From Deinococcales bacterium (GTDB lineage: Bacteria > Deinococcota > Deinococci > Deinococcales > JAAFIG01), in assembly GCA_043778225.1 (NCBI GenBank), contig JAYWGM010000077.1, positions 1 through 17,589 on the forward strand: a stretch of DNA of 17,589 nucleotides, in the 5' to 3' direction. Shown here one piece after another: positions 1 to 17,118 of the stretch (position 1 is its first letter; every line of letters begins with the position of its first letter). The notes beneath the pieces were generated by a model that worked only from the letters and a program-made list of their open reading frames with translations, was not told the DNA's origin and searched no databases. Position numbers and translations under genes: made by a program.

Positions 1-218
1 CTAAGCGACGGAAACGTTTGAAGGCGTTATTACATGATGATTACTTGCTATCGTTACTTGGTTTATCAGGCAAGGCATAGTTGGTGCGTTTGCCCTATCA
101 TGGCAGCCTTTACAGGTTTGGTGCTGAGTGTGCTGGTTATGCCGCCGGCTATTCCCGAAGTTCTCGAGACTTAAAAAGGCAGTCCAGACAACCCCATACA
201 GAACCATCACATCTCGAG

Positions 219-227
219 TGTTAGAAT
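219..227 (+). promoter_or_regulatory. Putative extended -10 promoter (TGnTAGAAT) for gap-pgk
   Basis: TG at 219-220 and TAGAAT at 222-227, about 45 nt upstream of the gap ATG. Confidence 0.45.
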
Positions 228-271
228 CCAATTGGTTTGTAGTCTTAACCTTATTCTACAGGAGGCTCATT

Positions 272-1270
272 ATGAAAGTTGGTATTAACGGATTTGGTCG
301 GATTGGTCGTCAGGTGTTTCGTTTGCTCCAAGAAGCCGGTATCGAAGTTGCAGCCATTAACGATTTAACCGACAACGCCGAATTGGCAATGTTACTCAAG
401 TACGACAGCAACTATGGGCGCTACCCCGGCGTAGTCTCGAGCGACACCGAAAACTTAATCGTGAATGGTCATAAGACCCGTGTGTTTGCCGAAAAAGACC
501 CAGCCAAACTGCCTTGGGCAGACTCGGGCGCAGACATTGTAATCGAATCCACGGGGCGTTTTACCCAAGCCGAAAAAGCCCGCGCCCATATTGATGGCGG
601 CGGTGCCAAAAAAGTGATTATTTCTGCCCCAGCCAAAGGCGAAGATATTACTGTGGTCATGGGAGTCAATCACGAAAAGTACGACCCAGCCAGCCACCAC
701 ATTGTCTCAAACGCCAGTTGCACCACCAACGGACTTGCGCCAGTCGCCAAAGTGCTAAACGACCTCTACGGTATTGAGCGCGGTATTCTGACCACAATTC
801 ATGCCTACACCGCCAGCCAGAGTTTGGTAGACGGACCTCGCGGCGACCCACGCGATAACCGCGCTGCTGCTCTAAACATTGTGCCAAGCAGCACGGGCGC
901 AGCTCGAGCCGTCGGGCTGGTGATTCCAGAACTTCAGGGTAAATTTACAGGCATGGCGTTTCGTGTACCAACGCCAACTGTTTCGGTGGTCGATTTTACG
1001 GCGCTCTTAAATAAATCTGTCACGGTCGAAGAAATTAACGCCGCCATGAAAGCGGCTGCCGAAGGCGCAATGAAAGGCATTCTCGAGTACACCGAAGAGC
1101 CACTGGTCAGTGTTGACTTAAAAGGCAATCCAAACTCGAGCATTTTTAGCGCCCTCGAGACGCTGGTGCTGGGTGGCAACTTTATCAAAGCCGTGGCTTG
1201 GTACGACAACGAATGGGGTTACAGCAACCGTGTGGTTGATTTGGTCAAGCACATGGCAAAAAGCCTATAA
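272..1270 (+). CDS. gap: Type I glyceraldehyde-3-phosphate dehydrogenase
   Basis: [13 protein letters not shown]ossmann motif, catalytic NASCTTN, AFRVPT and [18 protein letters not shown] at 260-265 before ATG 272. Confidence 0.98.
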
Positions 1271-1287
1271 TTAGTCTCAGTTCTCAC

Positions 1288-1394
1288 AGGGCAGGCACAA
1301 GACCTGCCCCTACACAAAACAATTTTATATAGGGGCGACCCTCTCTTGACCATCTACACGCACCTCACGGTCATGGTCGCTCGTGGTCGCCCTT
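1288..1394. repeat. Inverted pair of GTAG-type REP-like hairpins; the second carries a 38-bp loop insert (1343-1380)
   Basis: AGGGCAGG-CACAAGA-CCTGCCCCTAC (1288-1313), then ATAGGGGCGACC...GGTCGCCC (1329-1392); the spacer is itself an imperfect inverted repeat. Confidence 0.8.
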
Positions 1395-1412
1395 TTACTA
1401 CGAGGAGTACCC

Positions 1413-14848: not shown

Positions 14849-14925
14849 GGTGAAAAGGTCAAAGGGTGAAAAGGTTAAAAGTAAAGACCGCGTTCAACCT
14901 TTTCTACTTTTTACCTTTTTACCCT
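14847..14925. repeat. Second octamer-based inverted element, between convergent genes (possible bidirectional terminator)
   Basis: AAGG TGAAAAGG TCAAAGGG TGAAAAGG TTAAAAGT ... TTTTTACC TTTTTACC; resembles the reverse complement of 8749-8826. Confidence 0.65.
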
Positions 14926-15767
14926 GCTTTCCTCTCCCACACACCGCGTTTGACGGCTTGTTCCTCGAGTTGACGCATGACTTCGCCACCGTCGCGCCAA
15001 TGCAGCGAATGCAGGTCAGCCACACTGCGCTTGAGGATTTTACCAGCCGCTTCTAAGAGCCGTTGCTCGAGCGCTTCGCCGCGCATATTAAAGAGTTTTG
15101 TGCCGATACTGAGCAGGCGTTCGACTTTGGCTTGGCTAAAGAGGTCTTCGTCTGGAACTGCTCCGTGGTCGTATTCCTCGAGTCCGTCGTCTATGTCGGG
15201 TAGGGCAGTGGCTCGAGTTGGCACAGGTTCGTCTTCGGGTTCGGGGCGTGGTTTTCGGGCATTGGTTGGCGCGGTCAGTTGCGAAGCTGGGCGCATCGGG
15301 ATACTCGAGAGTTTTGGGCGCACGACTTCTTCGGGTTCGGGTTCTCGAGCAGTAGCATCATGGATAACTTGTACTGGTCGTGATGTTTCGATGCGCGGTT
15401 GTGGTTTATCGACCACCCGAGCCTCGAGTAAACCTGTGGATTCATCAAATTCTGGGGCAAATTGTGTGCCAAAACCAAGCATCCCAAGGGCGCGTCCAAT
15501 GCTGCCTGTTTCGGCTTTCTCGAGGTAATCTGGGAAATGGGTTTTGTCCTCGCGTTTGGTGGCGCTGGCGGTTTTAATCGCGCTGCCAGTATCGTCAAAA
15601 ACCGTGACTGTGGCTTGGACAATCGCGTAAGTGTCCTCGAGTTTCAGGATTTGGCTTTGAATCGTATAACGCGGCGCTTCTTCATTAAGCCAGATTAAAC
15701 GAGCAGCCACAGGCAAATAATCTTTGCCTTTAAGGTTCATCAGGTGTTGGCGTGGGTCAAAAGACAT
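14919..15767 (-). CDS. Putative Rad52/Sak-like single-strand annealing protein with a Pro/Glu-rich linker and a C-terminal helical domain
   Basis: GKDYLPVAARL.W and EKAETGSIGRALGMLGFG resemble phage Rad52-superfamily cores; not similar to Deinococcus DdrA as I recall it; -10 TATAAT at 15773-15778. Confidence 0.55.
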   Translation of the reverse strand: MSFDPRQHLMNLKGKDYLPVAARLIWLNEEAPRYTIQSQILKLEDTYAIVQATVTVFDDTGSAIKTASATKREDKTHFPDYLEKAETGSIGRALGMLGFGTQFAPEFDESTGLLEARVVDKPQPRIETSRPVQVIHDATAREPEPEEVVRPKLSSIPMRPASQLTAPTNARKPRPEPEDEPVPTRATALPDIDDGLEEYDHGAVPDEDLFSQAKVERLLSIGTKLFNMRGEALEQRLLEAAGKILKRSVADLHSLHWRDGGEVMRQLEEQAVKRGVWERKAG

Positions 15768-15778
15768 AACTTATTATA

Positions 15779-15795
15779 TTCTGTTTGAAGCAGAA
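15779..15795. promoter_or_regulatory. RDRM (DdrO-box)-like 17-bp palindrome
   Basis: TTCTGTTTGAAGCAGAA directly abuts the -10 TATAAT of the 14919-15767 gene and fills the 17-bp spacer. Confidence 0.65.
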
Positions 15796-15798
15796 TTT

Positions 15799-17118
15799 CT
15801 ACTGCTTGCCCTCGAGTGTGGCTGTGGCAGCATCTATCGGCATCACCAGCCCTTCGATATATTCAACAATACCCAAAGCAATACCATAAGAAATGCGGTC
15901 GAGGTAATTCGAGTTTTTCAGTTGTAGCGCTTCGATTGGATGGGTCACAAAACCCATTTCCACCAAAATGGCTGGCGCTTCGGCATTTCTAATCACATAA
16001 TAATCCGCCACTTGTACGCCTCGGTTTGAGGCAGCAGTCGCCCCAAGCATCTGCGATAAAACACTGGCTGCAAGATTTTTAGAAGCATCGGTTTGGTTGA
16101 GTTGCTGCAAGACTGGGGTTGGCTTTTGGGCGGCGGCTAAGGTTGGCTGTGGCTCGAGTGATTGCCAAATGCCAAAACCATTGGCATTAGGTGTGACTGG
16201 CGTTTCGGGGGTGCTGGGAACAAGAGCGACATTGGTCGGCATCTCGGTCGGGATTTCAGGCAGAACAGTCGTATCGGCAAGCTGAGGGTCAAGAGTGCTT
16301 ATGGCTTGGGGTTCAGCCCCTTGGGCTTGAGGTTCAGGGGCTGGCGCAACCAACCACGGTTTTCGGGAGACCGAATCAAAATAATAGACTTCCGTACCAA
16401 AAGTCGAGTTCCATAAACTGCGCGGGCGGGCATTGGCATGAATCGAAACAAAAGCGGTCTTGCCACGACTTGCTTCGGTTCGGGCATTCAAGTCCGAACG
16501 CTTGTTGCTCGAGAAAACCCGATTGTCGGTACGGGTCATTTCAATTCGCACACCACTATTTTCGAGCCATTTTTTGACCCGAAAAGCCACATTGAGGTTT
16601 AGATTAGACTCGAGTAAACCATTGCCAAGCGCTCCGGGGTCTGTGCCACCATGTCCGGGGTCCAGCACCACAGTTGGGGTTTGCCCTTTGGCTTTTGATA
16701 ATTTTAAGGCTGCCACGGCTGGCAATGCCGAAATATCCGAATAAGCACCACTAAAATCTACAACCAAACGAAAACCAGCTTTACCCGCACTTGGCTCGAG
16801 ACGCTGCGCCCGAAAACCGCGCCGACTCGAAACGCCTTGGGGAGTGGCAATCATGGCAATCGCGCTGCCTGCCGCATTAGCGAGGGTATACCCAGCCACT
16901 TCGGGTTTGGTTAAACGCAGACTGACTGGACGAACACTATTGCTCGAGAACGTGACTTTAAGGGCTGCGCCAAGTGCCTCGAGTCGGTATGGCGCATCTG
17001 TTGGGACATCAAAGACCAAACGGGTATAACCCGCATAACTCGCCACTCGGGGTTGCTCGAGGGCGAAGGAAGTGTTGAACGCCGCGCCAAACAAAAATAA
17101 GCAAATAAAGCGTCTCAT
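15799..17118 (-). CDS. N-acetylmuramoyl-L-alanine amidase (Amidase_3) with an N-terminal AMIN-like domain
   Basis: Signal peptide MRRFICLFLFGAAF; YTRLVFD and RLVVDF; VLDPGHGG, ESNLNL, FVSIHANA and AILVEMGF. Confidence 0.9.
   Translation of the reverse strand: MRRFICLFLFGAAFNTSFALEQPRVASYAGYTRLVFDVPTDAPYRLEALGAALKVTFSSNSVRPVSLRLTKPEVAGYTLANAAGSAIAMIATPQGVSSRRGFRAQRLEPSAGKAGFRLVVDFSGAYSDISALPAVAALKLSKAKGQTPTVVLDPGHGGTDPGALGNGLLESNLNLNVAFRVKKWLENSGVRIEMTRTDNRVFSSNKRSDLNARTEASRGKTAFVSIHANARPRSLWNSTFGTEVYYFDSVSRKPWLVAPAPEPQAQGAEPQAISTLDPQLADTTVLPEIPTEMPTNVALVPSTPETPVTPNANGFGIWQSLEPQPTLAAAQKPTPVLQQLNQTDASKNLAASVLSQMLGATAASNRGVQVADYYVIRNAEAPAILVEMGFVTHPIEALQLKNSNYLDRISYGIALGIVEYIEGLVMPIDAATATLEGKQ

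Follow-up and report, generated by a model that had tools for sequence, protein, structure and literature searches.

CTCGAG as a highly iterated palindrome in Deinococcota and its co-occurrence with AddAB-like genes

CTCGAG in the window and its source genome

The window, that is, the whole 17,589-nucleotide stretch analysed here (contig JAYWGM010000077.1 of the Deinococcales assembly GCA_043778225.1), carries 102 exact copies of the palindrome CTCGAG dispersed over 163..17061, with the first at 163 and the last at 17056-17061, or one per ~170 bp. This agrees with the hand count of about 102 in a preliminary description, which had likened the word to HIP1, the highly iterated palindrome 1 of cyanobacteria. 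The ~24-fold enrichment given there matches the excess over base composition alone, and 200 dinucleotide shuffles of the window (mean 2.19 copies, maximum 6) put the observed count at ~47-fold over expectation. The next commonest hexamers were overlaps of CTCGAG, and 102 of the 150 TCGA tetramers lay inside it, which identifies the hexamer, rather than the TaqI tetramer, as the word. Two intergenic copies (163 and 213; 163..218) lie upstream of a gene that we take from its sequence to be gap (272..1270, + strand, ATG at 272), which contains five copies in more than one frame. The following pgk (1413..2576, + strand) contains 11, ten of them as Leu-Glu, and an intergenic copy (2577..2582) stands immediately 3' of its stop codon; the encoded Pgk has 12 Leu-Glu pairs versus 3-7 in 11 Deinococcus-labelled orthologues, where several of these places read LP, LD, LA, LG or LQ. 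A further intergenic copy (13932..13937) separates a trpB-like gene (- strand) from the following gene (+ strand). By our own gene calls the sites fell in the three frames as 34/7/10 on the + strand and 28/7/9 on the - strand, with seven outside called genes, three of which (9645, 9675 and 17056) probably lie within 5' ends trimmed by the gene caller. The earlier statement that the word occurs in all frames, on both strands and between genes was thus borne out, with 163, 213, 2577 and 13932 intergenic, whereas 2649, also listed as intergenic, lies inside the longest open reading frame if the TTG start at 2610 is used and upstream of what appears to be its likelier ATG start. The longest stretch free of CTCGAG, and the window's only long one (4421..5829), holds a DUF3800 gene (4539-5279, + strand; 39% GC, 0 sites), likely a recent acquisition that the word has not yet filled in. 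Two short multi-copy elements, at ~14849-14885 and 17270-17589, mark places where many contigs join or end and summed depth jumps.

The source genome (G000; 4.03 Mb, 48.7% GC, 107 contigs, the largest 154 kb) carries 24,877 copies, or 6.17/kb (6,170 per Mb; about one every 160 bases). CTCGAG was its top-ranking hexamer, with observed-to-expected ratios (O/E) of 47.5 and 15.1 under Markov models of order 1 and 2, respectively. Density was 4.0-10.6/kb on each of the 107 contigs. The sequencing runs containing the window are biofilm metagenomes from one study, in which a second sample yielded contigs that agree with the window over long stretches to within 0-1 differences. The density of G000 recurred in 18 further assemblies of the window's family; the closest pgk relatives are labelled uncultured Deinococcales. 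Confinement to this contig through an assembly artefact, which the preliminary description had named as a possible undoing of its claim, therefore fails on all three grounds, and the proposed genome-wide, HIP1-like, DNA-level word in a Deinococcota genome is upheld by the Markov ratios and by the codon shuffle described below. As a separate observation, G000 strongly avoids most 4- and 6-bp palindromes (GGCGCC, 3 sites; GACGTC, 1; GGCC, 131, O/E 0.01; ~20 hexamer palindromes at O/E 0.03 or less; CGATCG depleted to 182 sites) and has ~22 methyltransferase-like genes.

DNA-level constraint, conservation and spacing

Coding analyses of G000 used 3,880 genes from our own gene caller. CTCGAG density was similar in coding (6.2/kb) and non-coding DNA (5.6/kb), and the 22,743 coding copies compared with ~2,450 after within-gene synonymous codon shuffling (9-fold), while the 2,122 intergenic copies compared with 67 expected (32-fold). 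By frame, 13,749/4,462/4,532 copies were observed versus ~1,780/390/310 after shuffling. Leu-Glu was encoded at 60% of the coding sites and was the most enriched dipeptide of the genome (2.31-fold), with CTC GAG encoding 69% of all Leu-Glu pairs; away from the sites, CTC served for 9% of Leu residues and GAG for 22% of Glu residues. Codon or dipeptide preference is therefore insufficient, as had been argued from the window. Silent variation at each position was assessed via the three reading frames, and the intact word was favoured over its synonymous one-off variants with log-odds of 2.3-4.9 at 6/6 positions, least against transitions. Constraint on all six positions excludes single-base repair bias. 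No clear C-to-T decay excess was seen at one cytosine of the word, against imperfect backgrounds. Flanks were near background in G000, and in 19 skewed 20-kb blocks no clear polar flank extension appeared except a 3' G excess explicable by gene orientation. Depletion of the octamer CCTCGAGG in G000 was considered as part of the motif and rejected, as it matches a general CCTNNAGG depletion. These data show that the force maintaining CTCGAG, in genes and intergenic DNA alike, acts on the DNA itself and depends on each of the six bases.

Site conservation in orthologues, a check proposed in the preliminary description, was scored in coding frame 0 at places with unchanged residues, with codon pairs as controls. 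CTCGAG was kept at 387 of 530 orthologous places relative to genome G003 (161 orthologues; controls 40%) and at 136 of 176 relative to G006 (53 orthologues; controls 35%), that is, at 73-77% versus 35-40%. Turnover was also evident, as 36-51% of the places empty in G000 hold CTCGAG in a congener. Constrained sequence had a lower density (3.0/kb in the ribosomal protein operon and 1.1/kb in 68 tRNAs), the 16S rRNA gene of the single-contig genome G013 had 0 sites with sites on both flanks, and the long empty stretches of G000 were mostly low-GC islands. One tRNA locus of G000 (C19:9937-14171; L421) is an array of 26 tRNA genes, all on the same strand, that together serve most amino acids.

Spacing between copies was non-random at short range. 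Pairs <12 bp apart occurred at 0.3 of expectation; the ratio had reached ~0.9 by 24 bp and was back at 1.0 by 65 bp. Occupancy of protein-permitted places was 0.23-0.33 within 15 bp of another site versus 0.72 at 100-200 bp. Other inverted hexamer pairs were less depleted (0.67-0.8) and direct pairs were enriched, so generic hairpin avoidance explains only part of the exclusion and was rejected as its full cause; a second nearby CTCGAG is partly redundant. Distances between copies, followed up to 400 bp, gave no sign of a helical (10.5 bp) period. The force on the word thus weakens when another copy lies within ~20-80 bp.

The only CRISPR array found in G000 (C80:16-2690, L384; 44 repeats) has CTCGAG in 10 of its 43 spacers, compared with 0.26 expected by composition and 7.3 at host density, and the spacers gave no self match; invading DNA is therefore as rich in the word as the host, which is the opposite of restriction avoidance. 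No CTCGAG cluster was present at the origin region (C89:45996-47986; L382:11900-14050), where dnaA is flanked by TTATCCACA-type boxes and each flanking intergenic stretch holds one site. Genes on the same contig that had been considered putative phage genes proved to be this dnaA/parAB region. A scan of viral sequences for three close CTCGAG returned at least 126 loci and was uninformative, the loci listed being mostly high-GC contigs also rich in TCGA and GAGCTC, with no tie to the source lineage.

Distribution across the phylum and co-occurrence with AddAB

We surveyed 364 genomes of the phylum, including the unpublished G327, on which no claim rests; the row for G267 in the codon-shuffle samples was ignored, and G250 (5.8 kb) was too small to use. 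In the window's family (f1), 19/19 genomes had 4.3-6.8 CTCGAG/kb. In the neighbouring family f3, whose largest genus (g7, 111 genomes) is taken to be Deinococcus, nearly all had <0.3/kb, the exceptions being G042 (3.6), G156 (8.6) and G157 (7.0), while G158, a congener of the last two, had 0.3/kb (O/E 1.0). A quick RpoB tree of 30 genomes placed f1 as sister to f3 and G156-G158 in one clade. When samples of 6-100 kb were compared with the codon shuffle, f1, G156 and G157 reached ratios of 6-14 and two genomes of f2 ~11. G042 and the Meiothermus-like genera gave 2.4-4.3, another five genomes from f2 and f4 gave 1.7-3.0, and G158, the Thermus-like G237 and five further members of f3 gave 0-0.7. 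Of the CTCGAG copies in the Thermus-like genus g9 (8 genomes; 0.6-1.1 per kb), 73-90% lay inside CCTCGAGG, which also accounted for half of all TCGA in sampled DNA (146/289). The octamer was 1.8-fold over the codon shuffle in G237, with other CTCGAG contexts at 0.13, so its enrichment there is modest in absolute terms; its share of CTCGAG sites was 46% in G042 and 0.2-4% in f1. CTCGAG is thus enriched across much of the phylum, as CCTCGAGG in the Thermus-like genus. As far as searched, this is new: full-text searches covering few subscription papers, in which some listings look like primer mentions, returned no prior description of CTCGAG or CCTCGAGG hyper-abundance in Deinococcota. One contig labelled as part of a cyanobacterial metagenome-assembled genome (L033) has a pgk 86% identical to that of the window and only 0.73 CTCGAG/kb, for which mis-binning, a chimera or transfer are possible causes.

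The distribution of the word tracked that of the AddAB helicase-nuclease. G000 encodes an AddA-like helicase-nuclease of 871 aa (C79:31198-33813) and, as its partner, an AddB-like protein of 813 aa (C32:43473-45914), both below NCBIfam cut-offs, and the corresponding genes are adjacent in G006 and G013. The AddB-like profile and structural model both found B. subtilis AddB as best match (profile E 1e-12; Foldseek 1e-27). Its N-terminal domain is conserved, and an LPxQR and Q63 stretch aligns with B. subtilis AddB residues 40-73, which, with this numbering, we take to be Chi-binding. The AddA and AddB of T. thermophilus (857 aa and 737 aa; PMC11143384) are close in length to the g9 orthologues. 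With a threshold of E <= 1e-45 and two candidates scored per genome, AddA was present in 18/19 f1, 6/125 f3, 21/23 f4, 65/68 f5 and 108/128 f2 genomes, and the sole f1 genome without a match is 57% complete. The six f3 carriers were G042, G156, G157 and three g22 genomes; they include all three motif-rich f3 genomes, and 119/119 f3 genomes without AddA had <=0.46 CTCGAG/kb. Neither AddA nor AddB was found in G158, G159 or G362 (the last from another family; 0.29/kb), all motif-poor, and G158 keeps ComEC and DprA. AddAB therefore looks close to necessary, and not sufficient, for CTCGAG richness. The link is one of co-occurrence. Of the origins offered in the preliminary description, a recombination mark thus gained comparative support. 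In G338 (C2:293505-296171), an addA match contains nine stop codons, possibly through decay after loss or through assembly error; the genome has 0.63 CTCGAG/kb, below most motif-rich f2 genomes.

On the strength of this co-occurrence, we tentatively propose that CTCGAG may stop AddAB in the manner of Chi, though as a palindrome. AddAB degrades DNA from its ends up to Chi (PMC11143384), and deletion of addAB in T. thermophilus raised transformation ~100-fold with plasmid and up to 30-fold with linear DNA (PMC9751324). AddAB would be the reader and CTCGAG would arrest it from either direction, so that DNA ends on which the word comes early would be spared degradation and passed on to RecA; working from either end, the palindrome would suit both two-ended breaks and incoming DNA. 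Site-bearing DNA would then survive breakage and uptake better, such alleles would win in repair and transformation, and the word would fill the genome, in some cases up to one per 120-230 bp, until neighbouring copies became redundant. Lineages losing AddAB would lose the word, and the Thermus-like lineage would have kept the longer form. The full version, in which CTCGAG/CCTCGAGG is a phylum-wide, orientation-free Chi of AddAB that rewrote proteomes and decayed with AddAB loss, as in Deinococcus, is doubtful at present.

Established Chi words (E. coli GCTGGTGG, B. subtilis AGCGG, S. aureus GAAGCGG; bioRxiv 10.1101/2021.07.08.451572) are the natural yardstick for this proposal. Like them, CTCGAG is a short, over-represented word, present also in mobile DNA, in genomes encoding AddAB, and the N-terminal domain of the AddB-like protein could be aligned with that of B. 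subtilis. Unlike them, it exceeds the density of E. coli Chi (1,008 per genome; bioRxiv 10.1101/2021.07.08.451572) ~30-fold, is made of minority rather than preferred codons and, being palindromic, cannot be oriented with replication. A Chi word is expected to be non-palindromic and oriented in a genome with RecBCD or AddAB; the enzyme is encoded here and the polarity is lacking, and we do not file CTCGAG as Chi, because it fails on polarity and a Chi function stays putative.

Several further points weigh against the AddAB proposal. The g22 genomes (3 genomes) have AddA and AddB yet only 0.02-0.05 CTCGAG/kb; their AddB deviates at several positions that are invariant elsewhere, and 51 kb of g22 DNA showed no conspicuous replacement word. 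In the motif-rich G003 (5.2/kb, 94% complete), AddA is present, but even a profile search gave no AddB. G221 lacks both proteins and has a density typical of its genus, and many AddAB-bearing f2 and f4 genomes are only mildly enriched. Concordant losses are few, amounting to two to four events, and three of them fell in small genomes (2.1-2.3 Mb) that likely lack many other genes too. A palindrome enriched 47-fold does not look like the known Chi words, which are far less enriched, and palindromy usually reflects a symmetric dimer on double-stranded DNA. In the list cited above, Chi and Chi-like words are non-palindromic and mostly oriented, and Chi frequency in E. coli and S. aureus is argued to follow codon use (bioRxiv 10.1101/2021.07.08.451572). 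In addition, HIP1-rich cyanobacterial models are described as being without recB, recC or recD (PMC5101192), whereas CTCGAG tracks AddAB.

Alternative readers and relation to known systems

Nearly as likely as the AddAB proposal, and likewise tentative, is that CTCGAG is the binding site of a dimeric double-strand DNA-binding protein acting in nucleoid organisation, replication or segregation, with AddAB merely sharing its distribution. Weak selection would then act at every site, and close sites would be redundant through overlapping footprints. The perfect palindrome with all six positions needed, the strong exclusion below ~20 bp (a plausible footprint), the positional conservation above controls, and the site-free 16S rRNA gene of G013 with flanking sites, together with the low densities in tRNAs and the ribosomal protein operon, would all suit such a protein, and Xu et al. 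proposed a role of this kind for HIP1 (PMC5861425). Against it, no candidate protein was found, CRISPR-targeted foreign DNA is as rich in the word as the host, the origin region has no cluster, and the sites turn over between congeners.

An orphan methyltransferase that creates or reads CTCGAG, as proposed for HIP1, through an enzyme that is divergent, often swapped, or missed, appears unlikely. The hexamer itself is a known methylation target in the phylum: N6-methyladenine was reported at 94-99.5% of CTCGAG in three cultured Deinococcota, Marinithermus hydrothermalis, Meiothermus chliarophilus and M. ruber, with enzymes for which no cognate nuclease is listed (PMC4752239), and the first two genera belong to the same phylum as the source genome. 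In that source, CTCGAG is absent from the five motifs listed for M. silvanus, and for Nocardia, which shares the orphan methylation, clustering near dnaA is discussed rather than genome-wide hyper-abundance (PMC4752239); G000 shows no such origin cluster. The ~22 methyltransferase-like genes of G000 would offer candidates; many lie beside nucleases and are poorer in CTCGAG than the genome. Across four Pfam classes in G000 and five other genomes, with MT-A70 and small classes outside the search, no methyltransferase orthologue was common to G000, G013, G042 and G157: best cross-matches among the first three were ~26-33%, two G000 enzymes were shared with G157 only (54% and 60%), one enzyme linking G013 and G157 was not found in G000 or G042, and G013 gave no PF01555 match. 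XhoI-linked enzymes of relatives had no orthologue in G000. A TaqI-like methyltransferase (query from G025, matching M.TaqI at E 1e-126) was present in 32/32 genomes of g9, where the word survives as CCTCGAGG (52-58% to the query; for example L194-L222), but in 0/19 of f1, and a PaeR7I-like methyltransferase occurred in 19/364 genomes, including 1/19 in f1 as a weak match (26%). Neither enzyme follows the motif across the 364 genomes, and both were rejected as its cause; the methylation link of the preliminary description is thus not supported as far as tested, and the decay analysis above gave it no clear help. Nor does CTCGAG behave as a type II restriction target (XhoI/PaeR7I), as the XhoI nuclease family PF04555 was found in 0/19 f1 genomes and the word is enriched in both host and CRISPR spacers.

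Quite unlikely, too, is a role in DNA uptake, in which the cell surface would recognise CTCGAG and molecular drive would accumulate it during natural transformation. In common with uptake sequences, CTCGAG is spread genome-wide and reshapes proteins, and its host has competence genes (ComEC, DprA and PilT-like genes are present); the diminishing return of close sites fits an uptake bias. The uptake sequences of Neisseriaceae and Pasteurellaceae are longer, non-palindromic and present at ~1 per kb. To our knowledge such sequences have a non-palindromic consensus of 9-12 bp, which counts against CTCGAG, a palindrome of 6 bp at 6 per kb. HIP1 raises transformation in Synechococcus PCC 7002 (bioRxiv 10.1101/2024.09.10.611283); however, the motif-poor G158 retains ComEC and DprA, competence genes do not separate motif-rich from motif-free genomes, and enrichment in CRISPR-targeted DNA requires an extra step.

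Codon or dipeptide preference, Vsr-type one-position repair bias, or an assembly or cloning artefact has virtually no chance of being the explanation: the Leu-Glu share of coding sites and the frequency of XhoI sites in cloning primers speak for it, but it is refuted by the family survey (19/19 independent assemblies agree), by the excess over the codon shuffle and in intergenic DNA despite the rarity of CTC and GAG elsewhere, and by the six-position constraint.

The window also holds a 282-aa gene (14919-15767, - strand) whose N-terminal 130 aa resemble Slr1353_N and Sak single-strand annealing proteins, with an Atlas feature score of 0.95 and no Pfam match. Within the phylum it was found in 8/9 genomes of the family and 0/71 others; it therefore offers no explanation for the motif beyond the family and was rejected as its cause there.

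Among known systems, a close likeness is to HIP1 (GCGATCGC, cyanobacteria; PMC4390886, PMC5861425), likewise an exact, GC-rich palindrome that is spread over the whole genome, non-coding DNA and every frame included, and is better conserved than controls. Both come in lineage variants with a 6-mer core and an 8-mer form (here CTCGAG and CCTCGAGG), and both have been lost from some lineages. CTCGAG is an exact palindrome enriched at least 15-fold genome-wide, in every frame and in non-coding DNA, with sites conserved above control words, and in statistical terms it is a highly iterated palindrome; it is not HIP1, which is proper to GCGATCGC in a cyanobacterium, whereas the nearest relatives here are labelled Deinococcales. 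It differs further in phylum, in word and in density (6,170 per Mb versus 300-2,700 per Mb for HIP1; PMC4390886), and Elhai reports a cognate methyltransferase in every HIP-bearing genome (PMC4390886), whereas a conserved one was not found here.

Collectively, the phenomenon is real and well supported, and its mechanism has one specific, testable candidate. HIP1 has been without explanation for three decades and, in the literature searched, is only cyanobacterial; CTCGAG is its denser counterpart in a second phylum and comes with natural controls, namely congeners with and without the word and its 6-mer and 8-mer forms. The match with AddAB gives a specific, testable hypothesis for a HIP1-like repeat, and an addAB deletion is available in T. 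thermophilus HB27, a harmless laboratory strain capable of natural transformation. Even if AddAB is not the reader, the field of candidates is narrowed by comparing G156 and G157 with G158, and g22 with its neighbours. Codon use and protein composition are biased by the word (Leu-Glu 2.3-fold), a point of importance for annotation and binning and for the design of transformation DNA. If the AddAB proposal is true, a highly iterated palindrome would have gained a molecular reader, and Thermus a Chi word, of which the literature searched gave no example.

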